Origin: Patescibacteria group bacterium UBA6241
GTDB taxonomy: Bacteria > Patescibacteriota > Minisyncoccia > Phycocordibacterales > Phycocordibacteraceae
Assembly: GCA_002441425.1 (NCBI GenBank)
Contig: DJWB01000001.1
Coordinates: 224,602-288,601, forward strand
Direction: 5' to 3'
DNA: 64,000 nucleotides
Below are positions 4,896 to 63,004 of this stretch, one piece after another. The first letter of the stretch is position 1; every line of letters begins with the position of its first letter. The notes under the pieces are model-generated. The model had not been told where the DNA came from and made no database searches. It saw only the letters and a list, made by a program, of their open reading frames with translations. The position numbers were made by a program, and so were the translations under genes.

Positions 4896-6146
4896 ATGAA
4901 CCTAGCAGAAGAGCTCTCGGCACGCGGACTGGTTGAGCACACCTCAGCACCTCTTGAAACTATTCTCAGTACTCCTCGTACTGTATATCTTGGCGTTGAT
5001 CCGTCTGCAGACTCAATGCAGGCAGGGAACTTAGTTGTGGTGCTTTTGATGAAAAGACTTGCAGATGCAGGACACAAAATAGTGCTTCTTGTTGGGGGTG
5101 GAACAGGGATGATTGGAGACCCAAGAGAATCTGGCGAGCGTTCTCTTTCAGATACTAAAACTATAGAACGGAACAAGAAGGCTATACGTGCTCAGATGCA
5201 GCAGATTATCGGGAAGAAAGTAACACTTGTAGACAACGCAGATTGGCTCCTCAAAGTTAAGCTTGTTGATTTCTTGCGTGATATTGGGAAGCATTTCTCA
5301 GTTAACGAGCTGATCAAGCGAGACATAATCAAAAGAAGACTAGAAACACCGGACGAGAGTATTTCATACACTGAGTTTGCATACTCTCTCCTTCAGGGAT
5401 ACGACTACTTGATTCTTAGCAGAGAAAAAGGAGTAGATCTTCAGGTTGGTGCTTCAGATCAATGGACAAATATACTTTCTGGAGTTGACCTCATACGCCG
5501 CAAAGAAGGGAAAGAAGCATATGCGCTAACTTGCCCGTTAGTTACTGACGCAAATGGAAAGAAGTTTGGAAAGTCTGAAGGAAATGCTGTATGGCTTGAT
5601 GGACACAAGACTTCTCCGTTTAGTTTTTACCAGTTCTGGCTTAATCAGCCTGACGAAATGGTTGAGAAGTACCTAAAGATGTATACCTTCATTCCTTTGG
5701 ATCAGATTGAAGAGATTCTAAGAGAGCATCGGAATAATCCAGGAGCCCGCGAGGCTCAGGAAGCACTCGCAAGAAGTATTACGGAACTTGTTCACGGACC
5801 GGGCGCTACGGCCGCAGCCACAGCTGCATCAAGTGCGCTGTTTGGGAAGGAAGGGTTGTCTCATCTTCCTCGGGAGGCACGCTCAATGCTTCTTACGGAG
5901 GCGCCAAACCTTCATGTATTATCAAGCGATATCAAAAAAGGACTTAACGTCCTTGATGTGCTAGCGACAAGTCCGCTTGTTACCTCAAAATCTGAGGCCC
6001 GACGCCTTATTGAAGCAAAGGGTATTTCTCTAAACGGGACTCAAGTATCCGAGGTAGACCAGCTGCTTACAGAGGGAGACTTTTCAGACGGAATAGCGCT
6101 CCTCAAGAAGGGAAAGAGGGATGTGCTCGTTCTTGTTTTGAAATAG
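4896..6146 (+). CDS. tyrS: Tyrosyl-tRNA synthetase with C-terminal S4 domain
   Basis: Global alignment to bacterial TyrRS (DPSADS..., AGHKIVLLVGGGTGMIGDP, KFGKS as KMSKS). The HIGH motif is replaced by MQAGN. Confidence 0.9.
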   Translation: MNLAEELSARGLVEHTSAPLETILSTPRTVYLGVDPSADSMQAGNLVVVLLMKRLADAGHKIVLLVGGGTGMIGDPRESGERSLSDTKTIERNKKAIRAQMQQIIGKKVTLVDNADWLLKVKLVDFLRDIGKHFSVNELIKRDIIKRRLETPDESISYTEFAYSLLQGYDYLILSREKGVDLQVGASDQWTNILSGVDLIRRKEGKEAYALTCPLVTDANGKKFGKSEGNAVWLDGHKTSPFSFYQFWLNQPDEMVEKYLKMYTFIPLDQIEEILREHRNNPGAREAQEALARSITELVHGPGATAAATAASSALFGKEGLSHLPREARSMLLTEAPNLHVLSSDIKKGLNVLDVLATSPLVTSKSEARRLIEAKGISLNGTQVSEVDQLLTEGDFSDGIALLKKGKRDVLVLVLK

Positions 6147-8285: not shown

Positions 8286-9635
8286 ATGGAACGGACACTA
8301 ATTGGCGAGCTTTCCGCACACAAAGGAAGCGAGATTTGCATACAAGGATGGGTTGACGTGCGCAGAGACCAAGGGAAACTTGTCTTCTTTGATTTCAGAG
8401 ACAGGAGCGGGATTGTGCAGGGTGTAGTACTTCCAGGAGATGAGAGTCTTATGGAGATAGCTAAAACTGTCCGTACAGAAGCAGTTGTATCTGTGCAGGG
8501 AATTGTTAACGAACGTCCAGAGCGTAACGTACAGGCAGATAAGCTAAACGGAGATATTGAACTTGAAATCAAACGAATAACTATTCTTGCACTCCCACAG
8601 ACTCTTCCATTTGAGCTAGACGCAGAACTTAATCTTGATACGTATCTTGATTATCTCCCACTCACACTTCGCAGCGAGCGCAGTCGCGCAATCTTTACTG
8701 TGCAGGCTGAGATTGTGCGCGCATACCGTGCATTCTTAAACCAGGAAGGCTTTACAGAGTTCCAAGCACCAAAACTTATCGGAGACGATGCTGAGGGCAG
8801 CGGAGAAGTTTTTGAAGTCCCATACTTCTATGGGAAGACTGCGCATCTTGCCACTTCACCTCAGTTGTACAAGCAGATTATGGTTGGGGCATTGGAGCGA
8901 GTCTTTTCTATTGGCATCGTATTCCGCGCTGAGAAGCACAGCACAACAAGACACTTGAATGAGTACACCTCTATGGATATGGAGATGGGCTTCATCAAGG
9001 ACCACACAGATGTCATGGCAGTTGAGAACAAGCTTATGCGCTATGTCTCTGCTGAGCTTGCTAAGAACTGCAGCAAAGAGTTTGCGCTTCTTAAGGCTGA
9101 GGTGCCTGAAGTTCCAGAACGTATCCCAAATCTAAAGTTGCGTGAGGCGCAGGAATTGATTTTTGCAGAGACTGGCAAAGATAAGAGAAATGAACCAGAT
9201 CTTGAGCCGGAAGACGAGCGTTGGCTCTGTGAATGGTCTAAGCGTGAGCACAACTCAGACTTTGTGTTCGTTACGCACTATCCTGTCTCAAAGCGTCCTA
9301 TGTACACCTTTGAAGATTCAACTGATCCGGGATATACAAACGGGTTTGATCTTTTGTTCCGTGGCGTTGAGATAACTACAGGAGGGCAGCGTAGACATGA
9401 CTACGAGAATCTTATTGAAGGAATAAAAATGAAAGGTCTTGATCCTGAGAAGTTTTCTTACTATCTCCAGGCTTTCAAATATGGCATTCCACCGCACGGC
9501 GGATGGGGTATGGGTCTAGAGCGACTCACCGCAAAGTTCCTTAATCTTGCAAACGTTAAGGAGGCAACACTATTCCCACGAGATATTAACCGCATTGATA
9601 CTCGCCTTACGGAGAATGAACCAACTGAAGTATGA
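8286..9635 (+). CDS. aspS: Aspartyl-tRNA synthetase, short archaeal/type-2 form
   Basis: Motifs SPQLYKQ, FRAE, GGWGMGLERL. About 449 aa and lacks the GAD insertion. Confidence 0.85.
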   Translation: MERTLIGELSAHKGSEICIQGWVDVRRDQGKLVFFDFRDRSGIVQGVVLPGDESLMEIAKTVRTEAVVSVQGIVNERPERNVQADKLNGDIELEIKRITILALPQTLPFELDAELNLDTYLDYLPLTLRSERSRAIFTVQAEIVRAYRAFLNQEGFTEFQAPKLIGDDAEGSGEVFEVPYFYGKTAHLATSPQLYKQIMVGALERVFSIGIVFRAEKHSTTRHLNEYTSMDMEMGFIKDHTDVMAVENKLMRYVSAELAKNCSKEFALLKAEVPEVPERIPNLKLREAQELIFAETGKDKRNEPDLEPEDERWLCEWSKREHNSDFVFVTHYPVSKRPMYTFEDSTDPGYTNGFDLLFRGVEITTGGQRRHDYENLIEGIKMKGLDPEKFSYYLQAFKYGIPPHGGWGMGLERLTAKFLNLANVKEATLFPRDINRIDTRLTENEPTEV

Positions 9636-11044
9636 AGCTAACTTTTAAGAAAGGAGATATTGATTCTGCACCTAAGGGCTATACCCGTGTTCGCCTTACT
9701 GGGGAGTCACGAGGAACAAAGAGAGTAGTCCGTGAGAACGGAATTGAGTGGCTTGAAATTGGTGCAGGCAAAGGTTCAGAAATGAACCGTAGGAAGTTTG
9801 TGTTGCTGTGTCGCACAATCGTAAAAACTGCAAAAGAGAATAAGTGTAAGAAAATTGCACTACAGTTTGATCGCTCTCCAGAATACTTCTCTGGCATACA
9901 AAAGGATGTAACACCAGAGGAGGTTTCAAGAATTGCCGCAGAGAACTTTGAGATGGCAAACTTTGAGTTCACTACCTACAAGACAAAGCCTAAAGAGGGG
10001 TGGGTAGCTGTTGAAGAAATACTTTTGTACGGAAAATCCTCTGCCGCATTGGAGCGAGCAGCAAAGGATGGACAAGTAGTTGGACAGTATGTAAATACAT
10101 GCCGCGACCTTGCAAACACTCCTTCAAGCGACATGCCTCCACAGCAGCTTGCGAAGACTGCTAAAAAACTCGTAGCAAATCTTCCTGTTACGGTAACCAC
10201 ACTTGGGAAAGCGCAAATGCAGAAGCTGGGTATGGGAGGAGTTCTTGGCGTAGCAAAAGGTTCAAGCCAAGAACCTGCATTTATTGTTATGGAATACAAA
10301 GGTGCTGCTGGTGCGCCTGTAGTGCTTGTTGGGAAGGGAGTTACATTTGATTCTGGAGGAATCAACCTGAAGACAGATGGGGGACATGAGATGCATATGG
10401 ATATGTCTGGAGGCGCAGCCGTTATTAGTACAGTTGCACTCGCCGCGAAGTTAAAACTTAAGAAGCACGTTGTTGGACTCGTACCGGCAGTTGAAAACAT
10501 GCCTGGTCCTGCTGCATATCGCATTCATGACGTGCTCAAGACACTTTCAGGAAAGACGATTGAGGTTATGCATACCGATGCTGAAGGTCGTATTATTTTG
10601 GCTGATACACTCACGTATGCAAAGCGCTTCAATCCGAGCGTAGTTATTGATGTGGCAACTCTTACTGGTGCCTGTCATGTGGCACTTGGAGATTATGCGA
10701 GCGGGCTTTTTACAAGAGATGATGCGCTCGCACGCACCCTTGAAGACACTGCTGAAAAGAGCGGGGACTATGTATGGAGACTTCCACTTTGGGACGAATA
10801 TGAACCAGCAGTGCGCGGCACTATTGGAGACGTGGTGAATTCAGTTGGAGGCGCCTCAAGCAAGTACGGAGGTGCTACCAATGCTGCAATGTTCTTGTGG
10901 CAATTTGCCAAGGAGCTTAGCTGTCCCTGGGTTCATCTAGATATCGCTCCCCGTATGACTGCAGCACAGGGAGAAGAGCTTTCAAAGGGCGCAGTTGGCG
11001 CACCCGTTCGCCTGCTTATTTCCTTTATTGAGTCATGGAAATAA
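9632..11044 (+). CDS. pepA: Leucyl aminopeptidase (M17)
   Basis: Motifs VGKGVTFDSGG and M17 signature HTDAEGRIILAD. Confidence 0.85.
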   Translation: MKLTFKKGDIDSAPKGYTRVRLTGESRGTKRVVRENGIEWLEIGAGKGSEMNRRKFVLLCRTIVKTAKENKCKKIALQFDRSPEYFSGIQKDVTPEEVSRIAAENFEMANFEFTTYKTKPKEGWVAVEEILLYGKSSAALERAAKDGQVVGQYVNTCRDLANTPSSDMPPQQLAKTAKKLVANLPVTVTTLGKAQMQKLGMGGVLGVAKGSSQEPAFIVMEYKGAAGAPVVLVGKGVTFDSGGINLKTDGGHEMHMDMSGGAAVISTVALAAKLKLKKHVVGLVPAVENMPGPAAYRIHDVLKTLSGKTIEVMHTDAEGRIILADTLTYAKRFNPSVVIDVATLTGACHVALGDYASGLFTRDDALARTLEDTAEKSGDYVWRLPLWDEYEPAVRGTIGDVVNSVGGASSKYGGATNAAMFLWQFAKELSCPWVHLDIAPRMTAAQGEELSKGAVGAPVRLLISFIESWK

Positions 11045-11775
11045 CTAACACTCAGGGATTCACTATACGTGCCGGATCATTTGAGGGACCCTTTGAGCTC
11101 ATTATTGAGCTCATTGATAGAAGGAAGCTCTCTGTAAACGAGTTATCACTGACTCAAATCACTGACGACTATATTTCGTTTGTGCGTGGCCACGAAGCAT
11201 TTCCTATGGAGGATGCTGCGCAGTTTATTGGCGTAGCTGCCACACTTCTTCTTATAAAATCTAAGTCTTTGATTCCTGAACTGGAGTTGTCTACAGAAGA
11301 GGAGGAGGACGTTGATGATCTCAAACGGAGACTGATGCAGTACGAGAAAGTACGAGAAGCTATGAAGGAGCTTTCTCGTGTTTTTGGAACTGCAGTACTT
11401 GTTTCAGCGGGAGACCGTGTTCCTGAACCATTCTTTGCACCTTCACGTGATTTTACACAGGCAAGACTTTCAGAAGCTCTATTTAGCGCACTACAAACCT
11501 TGGAAAAGGCTGAGGAGAAATTGCCAGAGGCAAGAGTGCGCCCACTCGTTACCATTGAAGAGATGATGGATACACTTTTAAAGCGCGTTCAAACTGCCAT
11601 GACACTTTCATTTAAAGACTTCTCAAAGGGAAGTGCAGAGAAAGTTGAAGTTATTGTTTCTTTCTTGGCACTCCTTGAACTCGTTAAACAAGGCGCAGTT
11701 GAGGCATTGCAGCACGATCCGTTTGAAGATATTCGTATAACTAATACGAGTACAGGAGTTCCTCGGTACGGTTAA
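11035..11775 (+). CDS. scpA: Segregation and condensation protein A
   Basis: N-terminal FEGPFELIIELI...LSLTQITDDY is typical of ScpA. Confidence 0.8.
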   Translation: MEITNTQGFTIRAGSFEGPFELIIELIDRRKLSVNELSLTQITDDYISFVRGHEAFPMEDAAQFIGVAATLLLIKSKSLIPELELSTEEEEDVDDLKRRLMQYEKVREAMKELSRVFGTAVLVSAGDRVPEPFFAPSRDFTQARLSEALFSALQTLEKAEEKLPEARVRPLVTIEEMMDTLLKRVQTAMTLSFKDFSKGSAEKVEVIVSFLALLELVKQGAVEALQHDPFEDIRITNTSTGVPRYG

Positions 11776-12614
11776 AGCACAAACAAGAAGAAAAGGAGAG
11801 CTGCAACGATACGGTATATACCGAAAGAAATGAACGTATGCTTTCTCACGTACTGAAGAAGGAAACGAATCGCGAGAAGCGCAACAACAAACGAAACAAC
11901 GAACCCAACTCCTAAGTTGCCCGCATCTGCAGAGGAAAAAGCATGCGCACTTTTAAATAAGTCCAAAGCTGTTGCTGCTGCCATAACAGGAACTGCAAGC
12001 AAGAAGGAGAACTCAACAATAGCTACGCGGCGAACACCCATAACAAGACCACCAATGATTGTGGCAGCCGAGCGAGAGACTCCTGGAATAATAGCGAGTG
12101 CCTGGAACACACCAACAGCTATTGCCTGAGGATAGGTAATAGTAGTTACAGAATCCGCGCCATCTTCCTTCTCCTTATGGAGTAGTTCAAAGACAATAAG
12201 TGCAACACCCCCAATTCCAAGCGCCCAGAGCACAACTTCAACATTTCCAAGAAGATAGGTCTTCGCAAGGTCATGCAAGAGGAGCCCGATAATAGCGGTT
12301 GGTATAAATGCTGCAGCAATCTTTTTAAGTATTGAGAAATCTAGAAATGATCTCCAGTACAAGACTACAACTGCAAGAATTGCTCCTAGTTGGATGGCAA
12401 TCTCAAAACTCTTCAGAAACTCCGTAGAAGGGAGTCCAAGAAGCGTGCTCGTTAAGATGAGATGGCCAGTTGAGGAAATAGGGAGAAACTCAGTAATACC
12501 CTCAACAATTCCCAGGATGGCGCTATCTAGCAAAGTCATAGCAGCTAGTATAGCAGCCCATCCCCAGGTCAGGTGGGTTGCTGTTGAGCGAGGAGGCGGT
12601 ATTCTGACTAGCAT
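11772..12614 (-). CDS. uppP: Undecaprenyl-diphosphatase (BacA/UppP)
   Basis: Motif GIVEGITEFLPISSTGHL. Eight TM helices. Confidence 0.85.
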   Translation of the reverse strand: MLVRIPPPRSTATHLTWGWAAILAAMTLLDSAILGIVEGITEFLPISSTGHLILTSTLLGLPSTEFLKSFEIAIQLGAILAVVVLYWRSFLDFSILKKIAAAFIPTAIIGLLLHDLAKTYLLGNVEVVLWALGIGGVALIVFELLHKEKEDGADSVTTITYPQAIAVGVFQALAIIPGVSRSAATIIGGLVMGVRRVAIVEFSFLLAVPVMAAATALDLFKSAHAFSSADAGNLGVGFVVSFVVALLAIRFLLQYVRKHTFISFGIYRIVAALLFFLFVL

Positions 12615-13163
12615 ATGGCGCTCGCGCTCTCATCCCGATTAGAAGCCCTTCTTTTTGCCTCAGGCGAGCCGTTGGCAAAGACTAGACTCGCGACACTGCT
12701 TAATGTGTCTCAGGAGAGTATTGAGGACGCCCTTCACGCACTTTCTATAACACTTCAGGATCGGGGTCTTGCACTCGTTCAGACAGGTAGAGATGTTGAG
12801 TTGCGGACTGCCGCTGCAGCAGCTGAAGATATTAAGCATCTGCGTGAAAGCGAGCTTTCTCGCGATTTAGGCAAGGCAAGTCTTGAAACACTTGCACTTG
12901 TTATGTACAGAGGCAGCGCAACTCGTGGAGAGATTGACTGGGTTCGTGGCGTTAATTCAAGTGCAGCAGTCCGCTCTCTACTTTTGCGTGGATTAATTGA
13001 GCGCATTGAAGATCCTGCAGACAAACGCCGTGCAAGATACCAAGCCACCATAGACGCATTAGCTCATCTAGGCATACAAGCAAAAGAAGAACTTCCGCGG
13101 TATGCTGAGCTCAGCGCAGCACTAGCAGCACACGAAGCGAAGGCAGACGAAAGCGAATTATGA
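12615..13163 (+). CDS. scpB: Segregation and condensation protein B
   Basis: N-terminal LEALLFASGEPL motif. Length 182 aa. Confidence 0.8.
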   Translation: MALALSSRLEALLFASGEPLAKTRLATLLNVSQESIEDALHALSITLQDRGLALVQTGRDVELRTAAAAAEDIKHLRESELSRDLGKASLETLALVMYRGSATRGEIDWVRGVNSSAAVRSLLLRGLIERIEDPADKRRARYQATIDALAHLGIQAKEELPRYAELSAALAAHEAKADESEL

Positions 13164-27982: not shown

Positions 27983-28014
27983 AAAAGACCCGCATAAAGC
28001 GGGTCTTTTGTTTT
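27983..28014. terminator. Bidirectional hairpin terminator between rpmA and rplI
   Basis: Sequence aaaagacccgc-ataa-agcgggtcttttgtttt. Confidence 0.6.
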
Positions 28015-28026
28015 ACTACGCGCTTC

Positions 28027-28452
28027 CTACTCAGCCTCAACAATAACTGAAATCTTTCCAAATACTTCTCCAACAGCAACAGGAACTTCAATTGTTCCGA
28101 GTTCTTTAACAGGCTTTTCAAGCTTGATTGCCTCAACGGGAAGGCTTGTAGCAGATGCAATCTCTGCAGCATCAACTGCGTCATACAGATGTCCCTTCTC
28201 GTTTGCCTTCTTGCGAATAACAATGCGCTCCTCAGCGAGTGCAGCAATGCGGTCCTGTACGAGCTTCACATCAAGCTCCTTACGATCCTTGTTCTGCTGT
28301 GCACGAAGCTCAGCCTGCTTTACGTTTGCTGGAGTTGCTGGCGCCGCCATGCCGCGAGGGATAAGGAAGTTAAGGGCGTGTCCGCTCGCACATTCAATAA
28401 TGGCTCCTGCACGCCCTGTGTTCTTCACGTCTTTGAGTAGTACGACTTTCAT
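28027..28452 (-). CDS. rplI: Ribosomal protein bL9
   Basis: N-terminal MKVVLLKDVKNTGRAG. Confidence 0.85.
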   Translation of the reverse strand: MKVVLLKDVKNTGRAGAIIECASGHALNFLIPRGMAAPATPANVKQAELRAQQNKDRKELDVKLVQDRIAALAEERIVIRKKANEKGHLYDAVDAAEIASATSLPVEAIKLEKPVKELGTIEVPVAVGEVFGKISVIVEAE

Positions 28453-28545
28453 ATAGGACTATCCTACAGAGAAAGGTCTCTGGGTGCAAATAAAAGCACC
28501 CTCCTTCCGAAGAAGTGAGGGCGCTAAAGTATTCCGTCGTTCTGA

Positions 28546-29145
28546 TTACGGGAGACGGCCGCCGGTGATGGTGACGACACGCGCACCAGCCCAGCGGCTG
28601 CCACGACCGTCCACCTTGACCAGGTCCACGTCCCAGAAGGGCGTGACATGGAGACAGTGGCCGATGAAGACCAGGCTGATGGCCCGGGCCCCGTTTTCAA
28701 TCAGCAGAAGGTTCGGCTGGCCGTTGTCGCGCAGGATGACGTCTGGCTGTTCAGCGTCGTGCAGCAGCAGACGCGCGAACAGATCGGGCATCTTGTCGGT
28801 GAGATGGGTCTCGCCGGCTTTCGTGCACGCGTGCTCCGCCTTGACGCACAGCTCCGGTCCTTGAAGCGGACCGTCGTCGCAGAGCGGCAGGGCTTTCACG
28901 TTCACCGGCATGGCCAGGAACGGCGAGCAGTTGTCCTCCTGGCTGTACCAGTGCAGAAGAGCCGGCGACAGACGCACTTGCGTCTGCAGGCTCCTCAAGG
29001 CCATGACCCCGTCACCTTCCTTGAAGGTCGGCGACGGCAGATGGGCCCGGTTGATCAGACGCTTTTCGGGCGCGTCAGCCACCAGAGCAAGAGCATTCAT
29101 TAGATTTTCCTCCAGGAATACACTGCGTACGATTAAGTTCGTCAC
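28546..29145 (-). CDS. Hypothetical protein (199 aa) on GC-rich cassette
   Basis: GC3-rich codons. SD GGAGGAAAATCTA precedes the ATG. The antisense ORFs are Arg/Gln-rich and were judged non-coding. No family recognised. Confidence 0.45.
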   Translation of the reverse strand: MTNLIVRSVFLEENLMNALALVADAPEKRLINRAHLPSPTFKEGDGVMALRSLQTQVRLSPALLHWYSQEDNCSPFLAMPVNVKALPLCDDGPLQGPELCVKAEHACTKAGETHLTDKMPDLFARLLLHDAEQPDVILRDNGQPNLLLIENGARAISLVFIGHCLHVTPFWDVDLVKVDGRGSRWAGARVVTITGGRLP

Positions 29146-40922: not shown

Positions 40923-40950
40923 AAAAAGCGCCACAGGGCGCTTTTTCTTT
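40923..40950 (+). terminator. truB hairpin terminator (agcgcc-acag-ggcgcttttt)
   Basis: Read from the sequence. Confidence 0.6.
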
Positions 40951-40951
40951 G

Positions 40952-41111
40952 GTGAGGAATTACTTACCCTCGCGCGAATCTACTTCGAGAATATTTAGCC
41001 CTCTCACGCCTCGCGGACTCGCGCTCGGGGTTGAATGCATATCTGATTTCTGAATTTAGGAGGGGGGTATGAAAAATGCATTCGGGAAATAAACAGCCCG
41101 GGGCTGTTTGG
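40952..41111. repeat. IR1 left copy (about 160 bp)
   Basis: About 90% identical to the reverse complement of 42982-43158. Begins with gtgagga. Confidence 0.85.
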
Positions 41112-41201
41112 TATTAAGAAAATGTCGCGAGCGCGGCTGGTATTCTGAGGAGAGGATATGAAGCAAAAATCTATGTATCGTGAGGAGTTTTATGAAGAAC
41201 T

Positions 41202-42944
41202 ATGATATATACTTCCTATATCGCCTTAGCTTCACGGAATTCAACCATGTCAAATTTTAACGGTGCTCCGAGACAGTCTGATCCTCTGAAACAGGAGCAG
41301 TTCAATTCTGCGGAAGACAGCGCTTTCGACCAGGCGCGTGAACGCGTCCTTGCGAGAAATAGAGACTTTGTAGAAACCGACAAAAACAGAGAGGAATCAT
41401 TCTCTGCACCTCGAACCGTTCAGGAAGAGCAGGATGATATAGAATGGAAAAATTTGCTCCTAAACACCGAAGCTACACTCGGGAGCATTGGTAACCCAGA
41501 CCAACGTAAGTTACTACAAGCAAACCCTGTTATGGCAAATGATGCTACGTATTTCTTAGCATCACAGACTTCGAGCTGGATAGATAGTAGGCATCTTGCC
41601 AAGAATATTCCTGACGATGTTCAGGAAGTGTGGAGGAGTGCGGAAAAGGATGACCGAAAACTTTTTGTTGAGACCGGTAAGCGCCTTTATCCTGAAGTGG
41701 AGCTTTCGTCTAACAATGTTGATACGATTTTTGGAACCCTTAAGAACGATGCCATGAAGTTCAGTAGCAAGGAACTAAAAGATTGGCTTCAAGATTTTCC
41801 TGTGCATGGAGCTGCCAACAGTTCCATGAATGGAAGTCCTGATAAGTTCCTAAGTCAGGTTGAATCCTTTATTCAAAGAGGAGCGGACAGTATCGGGAGA
41901 GCACGCAAGAGCAGTGACCCTGTTACATCAATGGAAATCGCAGCCGTTGGAAAAGGTCTATACGCGCTCGAACTACTCAGACAAGATCTGGAGCAACGCG
42001 TCCAAGAGAGAAAGGAGCCAAAAATTCAACATGGTGCTCTTAATACTGATGAAGAACTTCGTCGCAAAGCTGCGGAGCTCAGTAAATTAAATATTAGTGG
42101 AGAAATGAGCGCAGACACCAAGGCAAAACTTGAGGCTCACAGAGCAAAAATGGGGCTGTCTGTTTCTCCCGAAGTGCAACAAGGAATTCCAGTTTCTGAG
42201 GTAGACCCAGTTCGACCAGAAGCTACCTCTGAAGAGCATCCAAACACCCCGCAAACGCCAGGAGAAAAATTCTTTGCAGCGAAGGAAGCGGAACTCAAGG
42301 GAAACATCCAGAGCTTCTTTGAAGAGGAGAACGCGGAGTTCTCAAAAGTAGAGGTAAGCGGTCCTGCTTTTGTTGAGAATCCTGAAAAGCTTGAGATGAA
42401 GAAGGATTCGCTTCAGAGGGCTGAAGCACTCGTAAAAAGACTTCTCGATCCTAAATCTGCTGAAGACATCCGGGACAACTGGTTGGAGAATATAGACGAG
42501 ACAAATAATCTTTCGCAGTTTTTTACTAATGCGCTGACAAAAGAGATTCAGGGCAGCAGAACTGCGCCAAAGGAAGGAGGCAGTAGGAATATTGCCAGCT
42601 CTCTATTTAAGGAAATCATTCACAAGCGCCTGTATCCTTACCTGTCACCGTTGCCGCCTGCAGCTACCCTAAGTTCCAGAGGATTCGAACAGTTTAAAAA
42701 CCCCGCTCTTAAATACTGGGGAGAATCACTTACTAATGATGGTTTGACGGTTAACGAACCGGAAGCCCTGTTAGAAAAACTTGAAAGTGCGATTACTCAC
42801 GCCGCAAGTCAATTAGAGCTCGCACAGAGCGATACAGTGAATCCTCCTACCTCACTGGAATTAAGAATGGTTGGAGAACGCATTTTAGGCATAGAGCTAC
42901 TTAGAAGTGCCATAAAACAAAAACTTGAGCTTAGGAATCAGTAA
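41202..42944 (+). CDS. Large acidic hydrophilic protein of unknown function (580 aa), cargo bracketed by IR1
   Basis: Long ORF with no TM segment and no recognisable catalytic motif. Glu/Lys-rich helical character. The alternative start is Met16. Confidence 0.5.
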   Translation: MIYTSYIALASRNSTMSNFNGAPRQSDPLKQEQFNSAEDSAFDQARERVLARNRDFVETDKNREESFSAPRTVQEEQDDIEWKNLLLNTEATLGSIGNPDQRKLLQANPVMANDATYFLASQTSSWIDSRHLAKNIPDDVQEVWRSAEKDDRKLFVETGKRLYPEVELSSNNVDTIFGTLKNDAMKFSSKELKDWLQDFPVHGAANSSMNGSPDKFLSQVESFIQRGADSIGRARKSSDPVTSMEIAAVGKGLYALELLRQDLEQRVQERKEPKIQHGALNTDEELRRKAAELSKLNISGEMSADTKAKLEAHRAKMGLSVSPEVQQGIPVSEVDPVRPEATSEEHPNTPQTPGEKFFAAKEAELKGNIQSFFEEENAEFSKVEVSGPAFVENPEKLEMKKDSLQRAEALVKRLLDPKSAEDIRDNWLENIDETNNLSQFFTNALTKEIQGSRTAPKEGGSRNIASSLFKEIIHKRLYPYLSPLPPAATLSSRGFEQFKNPALKYWGESLTNDGLTVNEPEALLEKLESAITHAASQLELAQSDTVNPPTSLELRMVGERILGIELLRSAIKQKLELRNQ

Positions 42945-42981
42945 ATCGAACCTTCCATTCAAAACTATAAGGTGGGAATTT

Positions 42982-43158
42982 TCCACAAAGCAGCCCGAGA
43001 CATTGTCTCGGGCTGCTTTGTTCCCGAATGCATTTTTTCATACCCCCCTCCTAAATTCAGAAATCAGATATGCATTCAACCCCGAGCGCGAGTCCGCGAG
43101 GCGCGAGAGGGCTAAGTATTCTCGAAATGGGTTCGCGCGAGGGTTAGGAGTTCCTCAC
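42982..43158. repeat. IR1 right copy (inverted), includes an extra 12-bp-stem palindrome
   Basis: Hand alignment to 40952-41111 in reverse complement. Confidence 0.85.
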
Positions 43159-43283
43159 AAAAAGATACTTCCTCGGAAGATAGTTCGGAATACAATCCCG
43201 CCCATGGCGGGATTGTATTCATTTTCGCGCGCAGACGCGCGGCATTCTCAGACGGCGGGGATACTCTGAAATGCATGGATTTG
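43155..43283. repeat. IR2 left copy (129 bp) containing a 33-bp perfect palindrome (43188-43220) and a GC palindrome (43226-43241)
   Basis: Identical to the reverse complement of 44719-44847. Confidence 0.9.
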
Positions 43284-43330
43284 CACTTCTCTTTCGAGCC
43301 ATACCGTCGCAAGTGATACCATGCAAAGAT

Positions 43331-44875
43331 ATGGCACCGAGATATTTTCTCTACGCGCGCAAAAGTACCGAGCCGGACGACAAGCAAGCGATGAGTATTC
43401 CGGCGCAGCTCGTTGAGTTGCGAGAGTTCGCGCGGAGAGAAAACCTGAATATTGTCAGTGAGTACACTGAATCAAAAAGCGCAAAGACACCGGGACGCGA
43501 TGTGTTTGGCGATATGATGATGCGTCTTGAGCGCGACGAAGCCAACGGAATAATCGCGTGGCATCCCGATAGGTTGGCGAGAAACAGCATTGACGGTGGG
43601 CGCATCATATACGCCGTAGACACGGGCAAGATCGTGTCGTTGCGCTTTCCGACATTCTGGTTTGAACCCACGCCACAGGGTCTATTTATGCTTCAGGTGG
43701 CGTTCGGGCAGTCCAAGTACTATTCAGATAACCTCGGCGAGAACACGAGGCGTGGGATGCGGCAGAAACTGCGTAGAGGCGAGTGGCTCACAAAAGCGCC
43801 GTTCGGGTATACCAACAACCCTAAAACCCGCAATATCGAGCCGGACGCGGTAAAAGCAAAAATCATCGTTCGCGCTTTTGACGAGTACGCAACCGGAAAA
43901 TATACGCTCGTTTCCATGGCGCAGTTTCTCCAAGACCTCGGCATCACGACCAAAGCCGGAACACAGCTCGGCAAAGCGTCCATAAAGCGCATTTTGACGA
44001 ATCGTGCATACCTCGGCTTTACGAAACACCTCGGCGAATTCTTTCCCGGCTCGTTCGCTTCGATTATCACTTCAACGCAGTTTGAAGCGGTGCAAAATAT
44101 CCTCGCAAAACGCGAGCATCGCTACAAACGCCGTCAAAGGAACGATTTCCCGTTTACCAATCTTTTTCGCTGCACTGAGTGTACGTCTATGTACACGGCG
44201 CAATGGACAACTGGAAAATCTGGCGGACGCTATCGCTACTACCGTTGCACGAAAAAGAAAGGAAACTGCACATCAGGCTATGTGCGCGAGGATATATTGC
44301 TCGCGCAAATTCAAGAGCGGATCGAAAGCATCTCGCTTCGCGATAGGCATACGGGCTGGATGTTGAACAAGGTGGACGAGTGGGAGCGCAAAGAAAATAG
44401 TTCCAACGGGAGCGAGATACAAAATCTTTCTTCCAAGATATCAGCGAGCGAAGAGCGCATGGACAAACTGGTTTCCGCATACCTGGACGGCGATATCCCC
44501 AAGCCAATCTATTTGAAGCGGAAAGACGAAATTATGCGCGCTCTCGCCTCGCTGAACGAAGAAAAGAAAGATTTCGAGAACGGAAAGAAAAAGTGGGTCG
44601 AACCCTTGCGTGCGTGGGTTCTAGACACCAAACAAGCCATGGAATTGAGTTCGTCCGACAACTTGCACGAAATCTCCGCTTTCGTCAGGAAGGTCGGAAC
44701 GAACCCCCGTATTGAATACAAATCCATGCATTTCAGAGTATCCCCGCCGTCTGAGAATGCCGCGCGTCTGCGCGCGAAAATGAATACAATCCCGCCATGG
44801 GCGGGATTGTATTCCGAACTATCTTCCGAGGAAGTATCTTTTTGTGACCTCACGGGGAATCGAACCCCGATTTGA
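43331..44875 (+). CDS. Large serine recombinase (resolvase catalytic domain + recombinase domain + zinc ribbon + coiled coil)
   Basis: N-terminal YFLYARKSTEPDD...SIPAQ catalytic Ser region, Cys cluster CTECT...YRCTKKKGNC, and a coiled-coil tail. The ATG at 43331 is internal to the tool ORF. The ORF reads through IR2 and 30 nt into tRNA-Glu before its first stop, so the true C-terminus is uncertain. Confidence 0.8.
   Translation: MAPRYFLYARKSTEPDDKQAMSIPAQLVELREFARRENLNIVSEYTESKSAKTPGRDVFGDMMMRLERDEANGIIAWHPDRLARNSIDGGRIIYAVDTGKIVSLRFPTFWFEPTPQGLFMLQVAFGQSKYYSDNLGENTRRGMRQKLRRGEWLTKAPFGYTNNPKTRNIEPDAVKAKIIVRAFDEYATGKYTLVSMAQFLQDLGITTKAGTQLGKASIKRILTNRAYLGFTKHLGEFFPGSFASIITSTQFEAVQNILAKREHRYKRRQRNDFPFTNLFRCTECTSMYTAQWTTGKSGGRYRYYRCTKKKGNCTSGYVREDILLAQIQERIESISLRDRHTGWMLNKVDEWERKENSSNGSEIQNLSSKISASEERMDKLVSAYLDGDIPKPIYLKRKDEIMRALASLNEEKKDFENGKKKWVEPLRAWVLDTKQAMELSSSDNLHEISAFVRKVGTNPRIEYKSMHFRVSPPSENAARLRAKMNTIPPWAGLYSELSSEEVSFCDLTGNRTPI
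44719..44847. repeat. IR2 right copy (inverted); its last 3 nt overlap the tRNA-Glu 3' end
   Basis: 129/129 identity to 43155-43283 in reverse complement. The palindrome sits at 44782-44814. Confidence 0.9.
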
Positions 44876-44916
44876 TCCGTGAGAGGGATCTGTCCTAACC
44901 GTTAGACGATGAGGCC
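44845..44916 (-). tRNA. tRNA-Glu (anticodon CTC), no encoded CCA
   Basis: Hand-built cloverleaf: acceptor ggcctca/tgaggtc, D-arm identical in layout to E. coli tRNA-Glu, anticodon loop ctCTCac, T-loop ttcgatt. Confidence 0.85.
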
Positions 44917-61701: not shown

Positions 61702-62133
61702 ATGCGCACCAGTGTCCTTTCCATTCTTGTTTTCGGTTCCGTCATCGGCGTCGCGGGCATCGCCTGCGCCCAGGATCGTGCGCCGGCCAACATCCAGTTC
61801 GTGCACGAGCCGACCGGCCAGGAGTTTTCTCCGCCGCCGGTTCGGTTCGTCCGGACCAACCTGGCCGAGCAACGCATCGCCGAACGGCAGCGGGCCATGG
61901 ACAACGTGACCTGCGCCTACGAGCACGGCGTCGCCGGCTGCGAACAGCAGCCGTTCGCGAGCGACGAGCGCATTCTGCTCGCCGAGCGTCTGTGCGCGGA
62001 ACGCGTGCATCAGGTCTATTCCTATCGCAGCCAGATCTATCTGACCTGTCTGCGCGAGGAACTGGTTCCCCAGGGCTTCACCGTCCTGGAACCCAGCCAG
62101 GTCGCCGCTTACTACAACGTCGCGACCAACTGA
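61702..62133 (+). CDS. Secreted Cys-containing hypothetical protein (143 aa) on GC-rich cassette
   Basis: Signal peptide MRTSVLSILVFGSVIGVAGIACA. Very GC-rich codons. Terminator at 62155-62186. Confidence 0.45.
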   Translation: MRTSVLSILVFGSVIGVAGIACAQDRAPANIQFVHEPTGQEFSPPPVRFVRTNLAEQRIAERQRAMDNVTCAYEHGVAGCEQQPFASDERILLAERLCAERVHQVYSYRSQIYLTCLREELVPQGFTVLEPSQVAAYYNVATN

Positions 62134-62214
62134 CCGAAACCCGAAAAACAATGAGAGGCCCCCGCAGCGATGTGTGGGGCCTTTTAATTTCTATACAGTG
62201 GAGGTTACTTATAC

Positions 62215-62243
62215 TTGACAAAATATTGTATATGGACTATAAT
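62215..62243 (+). promoter_or_regulatory. Second perfect TTGACA-17-TATAAT promoter
   Basis: TTGACA at 62215-62220 and TATAAT at 62238-62243. Confidence 0.6.
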
Positions 62244-62296
62244 AGTATCAGTAGTGCGGTATGTGAGCCGCTAACCCTCTCTTGTGGAGATCCGAG

Positions 62297-63004
62297 ATGC
62301 GTCCCATCGCACTTGCCCTTTCTGCTTCCATTACTGCCCTGATCGCCTTCCCCGCCCTCGCCGACTGCGACACCGTCGTCTACGGCAGCGTCCAGAGCGC
62401 CTATGTCTACCAGGACATCGGCGTGGTCGCGACCGACAGACCGGTTCTGCAAGCCGGCGTCAGCAAGGTCTGCGGCAAATTCACCTATGATCTGTGGACT
62501 TCAACGGAGCTGTCCACCGACGGCCCCTACGGAAACCGCAGCTACGGTGACGAGCTGGACCTGACGGTCAACTACGACACGGAAATCAGCGACACCCCGA
62601 TCGGCGTCGTTAAAGTCCAGGTTTCGGCAGCGTACTACATCGCCGCCGACTTCGGGAACGTGGACGACGACTTCGGCCAGGTCTATGTGGACTTCGGTCG
62701 GCCCATTCAATTCGGGAGCGCTACGGTCACTCCGTATGTGCGCCCGATGCAGTGGCTCGGCGTGGAGACCATCCAAGACACCACCCTGGTGCGTGCGGGC
62801 GTTCGCTTCAACATCCCACTGGATCAGAACTGGTCTGTCCGTGGAGATGCTTCGCGCACCTCCGACCTCACGCATGGGACGGGCGTCTTCCGCGGCGACG
62901 TGACGGCAACCCGAGATATGGGAAGCTGGAACCTCTCGCTCAGCGCGAAGTTCACCGAGGCCACGCAAACGGTCTTCGGGATCGGCGCAAGTCGCGTCTT
63001 CTGA
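62297..63004 (+). CDS. Secreted beta-rich hypothetical protein (about 235 aa) ending in ...RVF, on GC-rich cassette
   Basis: Signal peptide MRPIALALSASITALIAFPALA. Alternating hydrophobic pattern and a C-terminal Phe, as in outer-membrane beta-barrels. The tool ORF starts at GTG 62282. Terminator at 63034-63069. Confidence 0.45.
   Translation: MRPIALALSASITALIAFPALADCDTVVYGSVQSAYVYQDIGVVATDRPVLQAGVSKVCGKFTYDLWTSTELSTDGPYGNRSYGDELDLTVNYDTEISDTPIGVVKVQVSAAYYIAADFGNVDDDFGQVYVDFGRPIQFGSATVTPYVRPMQWLGVETIQDTTLVRAGVRFNIPLDQNWSVRGDASRTSDLTHGTGVFRGDVTATRDMGSWNLSLSAKFTEATQTVFGIGASRVF

Follow-up and report, generated by a model that had tools for sequence, protein, structure and literature searches.

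The closest described counterparts of the locus considered here are the phage-type large serine integrases, such as those of phiC31, Bxb1, SPbeta (SprA) and Listeria A118/LI, which have the same three-domain recombinase, act at a short non-palindromic core and likewise recombine the attachment site of the element (attP) with that of the host (attB) to yield the hybrid sites attL and attR. In serine integrases the zinc-ribbon domain (DBD2) binds nearer the centre in attB than in attP, the difference being 4 bp in SPbeta (PMC11722253). The cassette chromosomes SCCmec (CcrAB/CcrC) are also site-specific islands that rely on serine recombinases, carry variable cargo and occupy the 3' end of a conserved gene. 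Small cargo elements next to tRNA genes are known, too, from the streamlined genomes of Prochlorococcus: 474 of 501 of these tycheposons have a specific clade of tyrosine recombinases and partial-tRNA direct repeats (Hackl et al., bioRxiv 10.1101/2020.12.28.424599). In the invertible segments of Mu (G segment/Gin), Hin, P1 Cin and PinQ a repeat-bracketed segment similarly lies beside a serine recombinase; these invertases have ~190 amino acids (aa), act at sites of ~26–34 bp and switch alternative gene ends. The locus under study lies in a stretch of 64,000 nucleotides (nt), hereafter the window, from Patescibacteria group bacterium UBA6241 (GenBank assembly GCA_002441425.1, contig DJWB01000001.1, positions 224,602 to 288,601). 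It contains an open reading frame (ORF) of 580 aa, ORF580, enclosed by inverted repeats next to a recombinase gene, and had been singled out in an original prediction made from the sequence alone. ORF580 is in all likelihood a passenger gene, not needed for integration, and fills the variable cargo position of an integrative element of 3.9 kb that targets a tRNA gene.

Patescibacteria (Candidate Phyla Radiation, CPR) have tiny genomes with few recognised plasmids or prophages. Accessory-gene gain in this lineage is poorly understood, and the family to which the element belongs, with at least 563 loci and 1–6 kb of varied cargo brought to tRNA genes, could be a major route of gene flow.

Anatomy of the element and its family

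The element spans 40948-44847 (3.9 kb) and is organized in the order host flank, arm a, ORF580, arm a' abutting arm b', integrase, arm b, tRNA-Glu. Its parts are listed below.

40923..40951, plus strand: host side of attL (B arm), consisting of the truB terminator hairpin and T-run, as read from the sequence
40948..41100, plus strand: arm a, the left arm of inverted repeat 1 (IR1-L); P' arm with extra repeated sequence, forming attL with the flank; inverted repeat with 43009-43162
40952..40955, plus strand: crossover core GTGA in attL, shared by three junctions
41058..41092, plus strand: AGGAGGGGGG (41058-41071) followed by a 7-codon mini-ORF (41069-41092), within arm a and facing inward, toward ORF580
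43009..43162, minus strand: arm a' (IR1-R), inverted P' arm and half of the putative internal attP
43155..43158, minus strand: core of the putative internal inverted attP, TCAC on the plus strand; the reverse complement of 43100-43215 reads b, GTGA, a
43155..43283, minus strand: arm b', inverted copy of the integrase 3' end and P arm, 129 nt, 100% complementary to 44719-44847
43331..44875, plus strand: large serine recombinase (integrase), 514 aa, starting MAPRYFLYARKST, with Resolvase, Recombinase and Zn_ribbon_recom domains
44719..44847, plus strand: arm b, the P arm, encoding the integrase C-terminus and forming attR with the tRNA end; inverted repeat with arm b'
44844..44916, minus strand: tRNA-Glu(CTC), the integration target, whose 3' end is the core plus B' arm (ARAGORN, Rfam)

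The IR1 arms do bracket ORF580 as predicted, at 40948-41100 and 43009-43162. They match over 129 nt at 93% and over a further 29 nt at 90%, far beyond chance, and have no further copies in the window. Arms a' and b' are contiguous, so that 43009-43283 forms one 275-nt unit between cargo and integrase gene, with the end of b' 47 nt upstream of the integrase start codon. At the left junction the host flank meets arm a (...CTTTGGTGA / GGAATTAC, in shorter form ..TTTGGTGA / GGAATTAC); the internal junction, read as reverse complement, joins b to a (...CTTTTTGTGA / GGAACTCC, or ..TTTTTGTGA / GGAACTCC); and the right junction joins b to the tRNA 3' end (...CTTTTTGTGA / CCTCACGGGG, or ..TTTTTGTGA / CCTCACGGGG). 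The only sequence common to all three is the GTGA core, and the pattern is therefore that of attL, attP and attR with a 4-nt core. Joining the 40951 side to 44848 onward rebuilds ...GAGGTC-A-CCA-AAGAAAAAGCGCC, a tRNA-Glu with encoded CCA followed by the terminator, which is plausibly the empty attB. The reverse complement of 43100-43215, in turn, matches exactly the junction expected of the circularised element. To judge from these matches, the internal a'-b' unit is a second, complete attP in inverted orientation, and IR1 represents a duplication of the P' arm; as a consequence, a and a' flank the cargo and b' and b flank the integrase.

During integration the large serine recombinase would recombine attP (P arm b, GTGA, P' arm a) with the 3' end of tRNA-Glu(CTC) as attB, presumably with crossover at the core. 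This would leave attL (host flank and a) at 40948 and attR (b and tRNA) at 44847. Before insertion the segment 40923..40951 would have lain just downstream of tRNA-Glu, which would stay intact up to the discriminator base after it.

The recombinase noticed beside the module is a large serine integrase, adjoining the repeat-bounded ORF580. It matches PF00239 (2e-21), PF07508 (8e-13) and PF13408 (1e-10) in Pfam and the integrase family phrog_95 in PHROGs (1e-81), whereas its best NCBIfam matches, CcrB, XisF and CcrA, are all far below cut-offs; the queries used 43322-44875, with three codons upstream of start 43331 added. Its last ~43 codons are arm b, and the stop codon falls inside the tRNA-Glu gene on the other strand. 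The P-arm DNA motif GAAGT(A/T)TC encodes a conserved E-V-S of the integrase C-terminus, which places the DNA site and the protein under overlapping constraints. The homologues found number more than 5,700, those with names being mostly labelled Patescibacteria; the best 120 are 61–100% identical and nearly full length.

A scan of species-representative genomes for integrase relatives returned at least 563 loci (designated by L numbers), and the best 80 were analysed together with the window and L030–L032, 84 in total. The b inverted-repeat pair is present in 76 of the 84, with a median identity of 99.2%, and in 75 an opposite-strand tRNA overlaps or abuts the integrase 3' end. The target is tRNA-Glu in 40 of these 75 loci, Ser in 22, Arg in 7, Leu in 3, and Gly, Val and Pro in one each. 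Both repeat pairs occur in 19 of the 84, the a arms measuring 61–297 nt and enclosing 1.1–6 kb. Elements of the family span 2.7–8 kb, have inverted repeats of 130–430 nt and contain no phage genes. The junction pattern (left flank to a, b to a, b to tRNA) is identical in 18 of 18 elements compared base by base, and the core has 3–7 nt in the 16 where it can be delimited. Throughout the 18, G[CA][GT]CGAA (GCGCGAA in the window) begins 16 nt beyond the core in the P' arm, and TCGAA, in the T-arm of the tRNA, 12 nt beyond it; the start of CGAAC is accordingly +19 on the P' side and +13 on the tRNA side (18/18). This outward shift of 6 bp is the signature expected of attP versus attB half-sites of serine integrases.

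The double-repeat design is found also in the complete chromosomes CP060229.1 and OY970382.1, and an assembly artefact was rejected as its source, given that it recurs in dozens of independent assemblies including these two. The repeats do act as a systematic assembly breakpoint: the contig starts within 600 nt upstream of the integrase (often 100–600 nt) at 37 of the 84 loci. This accounts for the recurrent contig break in metagenome-assembled genomes of Patescibacteria, in which cargo is probably under-reported. Many metagenome contigs of ~1.7–2.0 kb hold this integrase alone.

In the window, and equally in L022 and L113, the outer ~50 nt of the left arm a (window 40956-41005) differ from the internal copy (window 43105-43154) at 9–11 positions. 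L001 has a left arm (5073-5125) of the internal type, and the divergent version accompanies the element into different hosts. The arms gave nothing in an Rfam scan; arm a with its leader has no unusual RNA fold (z = -1.3); promoter and terminator counts are at or below those of shuffled sequence; and arm patterns are absent from IMG/VR viral contigs. A metagenome scan for the arm b hairpin returned 22 matches, of which one only (L022) is related. A miniature inverted-repeat transposable element or an insertion sequence was rejected for IR1, since there are no other copies in the window and attachment-site logic explains the repeats. Integron-like cassette insertion at the internal site was likewise rejected because the flanking sites are inverted and not direct.

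ORF580 as probable cargo

Gene content between the a arms varies among closely related elements. L030 has an integrase 85% identical to that of the window, sits at the same truB...tRNA-Glu-murF locus and has the same two repeat pairs, and its a arms enclose unrelated genes of 597 aa and 113 aa. L057 and L059 share backbones and arms at ~89–95% identity, and the sequence between their arms is mostly non-homologous. Other cargos recognized by Pfam comprise a cytochrome d1/b5 protein, an aromatic amino-acid lyase, a beta-helix/PKD/peptidoglycan-binding protein, a GTP cyclohydrolase II-methyltransferase fusion, an AAA_15 ATPase, a phospholipase D-like protein, an FAD oxidase, an ABC transporter operon, a 2-hydroxyacid dehydrogenase and small HTH_3 regulators, besides proteins without assignment. 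No ORF580-like protein was detected by hmmsearch in the 18 other complete elements. As relatives of the integrase carry unrelated cargo, ORF580 cannot be a required partner of this integrase clade.

Some components at the ends of the slot recur. A small protein is encoded at the integrase-proximal end of the cargo, divergent from the integrase and adjoining a', in 6 of the 19 double-repeat elements, the window element having none:

L083 7295-7516, minus strand: small protein, HTH_3 (XRE-type) by Pfam
L039 7373-7726, minus strand: small protein, HTH_3 (XRE-type) by Pfam
L041 7310-7558, L044 7463-7681, L082 7250-7465 and L102 3998-4219, minus strand: the same conserved small protein

The helix-turn-helix (HTH) assignment was confirmed by Pfam for the two members tested, L083 and L039, and the protein could be a regulator or a candidate excision factor. 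Moreover, ~100–350 nt inside the distal a arm are conserved between elements whose other cargo is unrelated (L057 4819-5335 and L059 5591-6172; L041 4518-4911 and L093 3262-3660). Small inward-reading ORFs near the distal a arm also cluster, in L059 with L103 and in L044 with L104. The conserved stretch may be a further component of the backbone.

The ORF580 element itself is 99.4–99.9% identical across three different left flanks, those of the window, L001 and L022/L113. L001 has a-ORF580-a'-b' at 99.4% identity, next to ATPase, YqeY and TruB genes that are only 65–75% identical to those of the window; in L022 and L113 the element is 99.9% identical and its left flank is a third one, of unrelated sequence. 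Among 7 contigs the ORF580 sequence varies at one base only (1697/1698 identical), a change of S328P in the linker in which the window is the odd one. A near-identical element in three different flanks must therefore have moved recently, and excision would be part of such movement.

These data bear on whether ORF580 might be an ordinary host gene, or a spurious ORF, between chance repeats. Its guanine-plus-cytosine (GC) content is near the host average, as had been predicted (0.45–0.46, against ~0.48 for the window), and it has no annotated domain, both of which would suit such an explanation. It travels with the element into three flanks, however; in L030 other genes take its place at the same locus; its homologues share conserved motifs with it, and the fold model is confident; and the repeats, 129–153 nt long, belong to a family-wide design. 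The explanation is refuted by these observations and retains practically no probability. Within the window, local GC peaks occur at 28001-29000 (0.56) and 62001-63000 (0.59), over the background of ~0.48.

The gene and its surroundings contain the following features.

41192..41260, plus strand: upstream ORF of 22 codons (MKNYDIYFLYRLSFTEFNHVKF) with a GAGGAG Shine-Dalgarno sequence, read from the sequence; overlaps the probable ORF580 start at 41247
41202..42944, plus strand: ORF580 as called, 580 aa, uninterrupted
41247..42944, plus strand: ORF580 from its probable true start M16, 565 aa, based on homologue N-termini
41433..42020, plus strand: N-terminal copy of the ~190-aa helical-bundle domain (alignment A2; nine helices by AlphaFold)
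42168..42269, plus strand: Pro-rich acidic linker between the two domains, with low model confidence (predicted local distance difference test, pLDDT) and poor conservation in alignment A1
42384..42941, plus strand: C-terminal copy of the helical-bundle domain (BLASTP of halves; alignment A2)
42985..43021, no strand assigned: hairpin with a perfect 18-bp stem after the ORF580 stop codon, an inverted repeat that overlaps the inner end of arm a' and is likely a terminator

The long uninterrupted frame that had been predicted is present, with its start probably shifted to 41247, because all homologues begin M-P/S-N-F-N-G (MPNFNG type). No obvious Shine-Dalgarno sequence of its own precedes this start, and the 22-codon upstream ORF could possibly be translationally coupled to ORF580. 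The description of an acidic, hydrophilic, Glu/Lys/Gln-rich protein is accurate (isoelectric point 5.1, net charge -20, E 10.8%, K 7.1%, Q 5.1%), and cysteine is absent. A maximum Kyte-Doolittle 19-mer score of 1.1 means that there is no transmembrane segment or signal peptide, again as predicted. The helical repeats correspond to a ~190-aa domain that is duplicated internally, the two halves aligning to each other (BLASTP E=2e-8), and that is marked by the motifs LFxExGKRLYP, NPxLKxW and LELLRQDLE in both ORF580 copies and the homologues (alignment A2). The AlphaFold model of one domain, built on alignment A2, is all-helical with nine helices (pLDDT 90.5; predicted template modelling score, pTM, 0.88). 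The full-length model from the single sequence is poor (pLDDT 47), with the Pro-rich stretch disordered; this stretch, too, had been recognized from the sequence and coincides with the linker between the domains (42168-42269).

An exhaustive search of 1.84 billion representative proteins produced three clusters of ORF580 homologues only, plus one fragment of the query itself. P0003 is the sole full-length homologue, at 34% identity, and two further homologues are partial. ORF580 is a real gene, as attested by this full-length homologue and the two partial ones, the internal duplication and the confident one-domain model. Comparison with Pfam, PHROGs, PADLOC and NCBIfam profiles gave no significant match and sequence-profile searches of the Protein Data Bank (PDB) came back empty, in line with the prediction that no motif could be assigned. 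Foldseek against BFVD and PDB yielded nothing significant, and no housekeeping family is matched. A word-indexed homologue search with the single sequence and the profile returned only the query, and a protein-pattern scan of species-representative genomes found no relatives. A weak DruF match of P0003 (E=3e-4, 17 bits) was disregarded. ORF580 defines a new family of tandem helical-bundle proteins. The genomic context of the family is known twice only, P0005 being without a recorded contig and the contig of P0004 (L007) being too short to show a recombinase. The family is tiny, has been seen only on serine-integrase elements wherever context is known, and looks restricted to mobile elements.

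The gene for P0003 adjoins a different large serine recombinase, 33% identical to the window integrase, by the 3' end of a tRNA-Arg gene (L005, L006). The L005 element is a simple integrase element without long inverted repeats. Its stretch 8383-13060 contains three direct copies of the 18-mer GTGCGATACCGTG... (at 8425, 12768 and 12980) and unannotated ORFs of 285 aa, 58 aa and 48 aa. The original description of ORF580 as an accessory gene in a repeat-bounded module by a recombinase is upheld on several counts: there is no housekeeping match, P0003 likewise lies by a serine recombinase, and among relatives the same slot, in L030, has been swapped for unrelated genes.

The recurrence of a serine recombinase beside P0003 raises the alternative of ORF580 as a mobility helper, namely a recombination directionality factor or a transfer/establishment factor. 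ORF580 and P0003 each adjoin a large serine recombinase by a tRNA 3' end, their divergence (34% identity) is similar to that of their integrases (33%), the window element has no other candidate gene, and the directionality factors described so far vary widely in both sequence and fold (PMC11722253). On the other hand, integrase relatives at 59–88% identity carry unrelated cargo, with an ORF580-like protein in 0 of 18 other complete elements, and the architecture of tandem helical bundles and a long disordered linker does not in itself point to such a role. Most characterised directionality factors are far smaller than 565 aa. A helper function is accordingly rated improbable. On balance, ORF580 is probably a non-enzymatic, protein-binding accessory protein that is dispensable for mobility; it would serve in protein binding or scaffolding and would be expressed from signals in its own 146-nt leader. 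An anti-defence role is possible.

Several points weigh against ORF580 as dispensable cargo of an integrating element with the anatomy given above. The circular junction (b joined to a and continuing into the ORF580 leader) and the empty attB were not recovered among the contigs, and the window element yielded no recombination directionality factor and has no candidate for one besides ORF580. Integrase adjacency of the ORF580 family is known from two contexts only, leaving room for a helper role. This reading assigns no purpose to the internal inverted attP or to the near-perfect identity of the long arms, and L005, a simple integrase element, has no such repeats. Finally, the a arms of the window are only 92–93% identical, with differences clustered in the outer 50 nt, which it does not fully account for.

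Orientation and possible roles of the repeats

The orientation of ORF580 relative to left flank and arm is the same in 7 of 7 independent contigs; a flipped ORF580 segment occurs in 0 of the 7, consensus contigs being unable to show minority orientations. Flipping is rare, or selected against, in consensus genomes. The integrase segment, by contrast, is inverted between the b arms in one contig, L113, which reads host flank, a-ORF580-a', b', reversed integrase segment, b. This element (L113 1-4162; ENA ERZ27247358 k141_1820008) corresponds to window 40952-44847, has an L022-type flank and lies on a contig that ends exactly at the core. Its integrase ORF reads from b into a and thereby acquires a different C-terminal tail (539-aa variant P0129). 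As L113 was assembled at k=141, which exceeds the 129-nt arm, the join should rest on real reads. Were the integrase segment to flip, its gene would come to lie immediately downstream of the tRNA promoter and read in the same direction; at none of the 84 loci does a tRNA lie upstream of the integrase. Among the 19 double-repeat elements, 16 have cargo encoded mainly on the strand opposite the integrase, two (the window element and L075) on the same strand, and one, L089, on both.

Could ORF580 be an invertible cassette, in which a/a' serve as recombination sites and a flip switches the gene by means of a promoter outside, on the truB or the integrase side? Long inverted repeats do bracket the gene, with a serine recombinase next door. 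ORF580 in the window is co-directional with the upstream truB and the cargo of 16 of 19 family members mostly opposes the integrase, implying that both orientations exist over evolutionary time. The inverted integrase segment of L113 and the ~99–100% identity of arm pairs, which implies ongoing recombination or gene conversion, point the same way. Against this stand the single orientation of ORF580 in all seven contigs and the nature of the sites, which here would be attL and attP, a pair not known to be permissive (PMC11722253). Furthermore, since the arms are inverted copies of each other, signals inside them face inward from both sides, whichever way the cargo lies, and cannot distinguish orientations. 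There is a terminator hairpin between truB and the element, entire operons and HTH regulators of their own occur as cargo in other elements, and a 16:2 bias in orientation is at odds with free flipping. The enzyme, moreover, is a 514-aa recombinase of the integrase type and not a small serine invertase of ~190 aa with a C-terminal HTH. An ORF580 switch is therefore hardly probable, and the original suggestion of orientation-dependent expression through IR1, which reads as a P' arm, is not supported. The AGGAGGGGGG-ATG signal reported as outward in IR1-L in fact points inward to ORF580, and its 7-codon ORF is shifted in frame by one extra A in the window a' arm and the L001 left arm. It is probably not coding, given the lack of conservation as coding sequence.

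Arm pairs have been kept ~99–100% identical while the integrases diverged to 60% identity. Arm identities are also discordant within elements (a 92% and b 100% in the window; a 100% and b 91% in L093), which argues for independent gene conversion of each pair and not for a clock set at insertion. A model resembling long terminal repeats, with arms identical at insertion and diverging thereafter, was rejected on account of this discordance.

The region L095 900-14400 and the region L064 5560-15886 are tandem arrays of two or three double-repeat elements, with some integrases only 38% identical to that of the window. Neighbouring elements of L064 directly meet arm b to arm a in a hybrid attP-like junction, which suggests integration into the attL of a resident element.

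As regards function, the internal attP may possibly mediate autoregulation, with the integrase binding its own upstream attP, and the double repeats may possibly permit exchange of cargo in either orientation by homologous recombination in the arms. A tentative and still doubtful proposal is that the double inverted-repeat design, far from being a relic, is a functional device that defines a new class of serine-integrase elements in Patescibacteria, acting as an either-orientation platform for gene capture and exchange and/or as a flip-flop switch, with ORF580 as one captured cassette. If so, ORF580 would be one cassette from a large, largely unexplored pool of cargo.

Comparison with known systems

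A description of the double inverted-repeat design with resident attP was not found in full-text searches of the literature (open-access papers and bioRxiv), and neither an intact resident attP nor integrase genes bracketed by their own arms are expected from known serine integrases. The family integrases also offer predictable attP/attB sites for organisms currently without genetic tools.

Relative to phage-type systems, the distal motif is again further from the core in attP half-sites, by 6 bp here and by 4 bp in SPbeta (PMC11722253). The differences lie elsewhere: the elements are 2.7–8 kb in size, with no phage genes and no directionality factor identified; the integrase ORF traverses the P arm and crossover site and ends within the tRNA; a second, seemingly intact inverted attP is retained right upstream of the integrase gene; and near-identical inverted repeats of 130–430 nt bracket both integrase and cargo. 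The mode of life recalls that of the SCCmec-type cassettes and, conceptually, that of tycheposons. In contrast with SCCmec, the target is a tRNA 3' end and not rlmH, the elements are much smaller, have one recombinase gene and reside in Patescibacteria, and they possess the putative internal inverted attP together with long inverted repeats.

Tycheposons resemble the present family in tandem accretion at the same tRNA, as in L095 and L064, and in cargo that includes nutrient-uptake, metabolic and defence-like genes. The window element has neither their tyrosine recombinase clade nor partial-tRNA direct repeats; it relies on a large serine recombinase, has inverted flanking repeats and shares a core of 4 nt (3–7 nt in the family). 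The invertible segments differ in turn, as here a 514-aa integrase is found with attachment-site arms of 130–430 nt, the recombinase gene itself is bracketed and the ORF580 segment has never been seen flipped.

A further analogy is offered by plastid genomes and the yeast 2-micron plasmid, for the circularised element would consist of two unique segments and two inverted repeat copies that are kept near-identical, and one inverted isomer, L113, has been observed. The analogy is architectural only, and in contrast to those flip-flop systems there is no evidence of element replication and no conserved replication gene. In summary, the integrase and the attachment-site logic are classical for large serine integrases, and what appears to be new is the double inverted-repeat layout with its resident attP.

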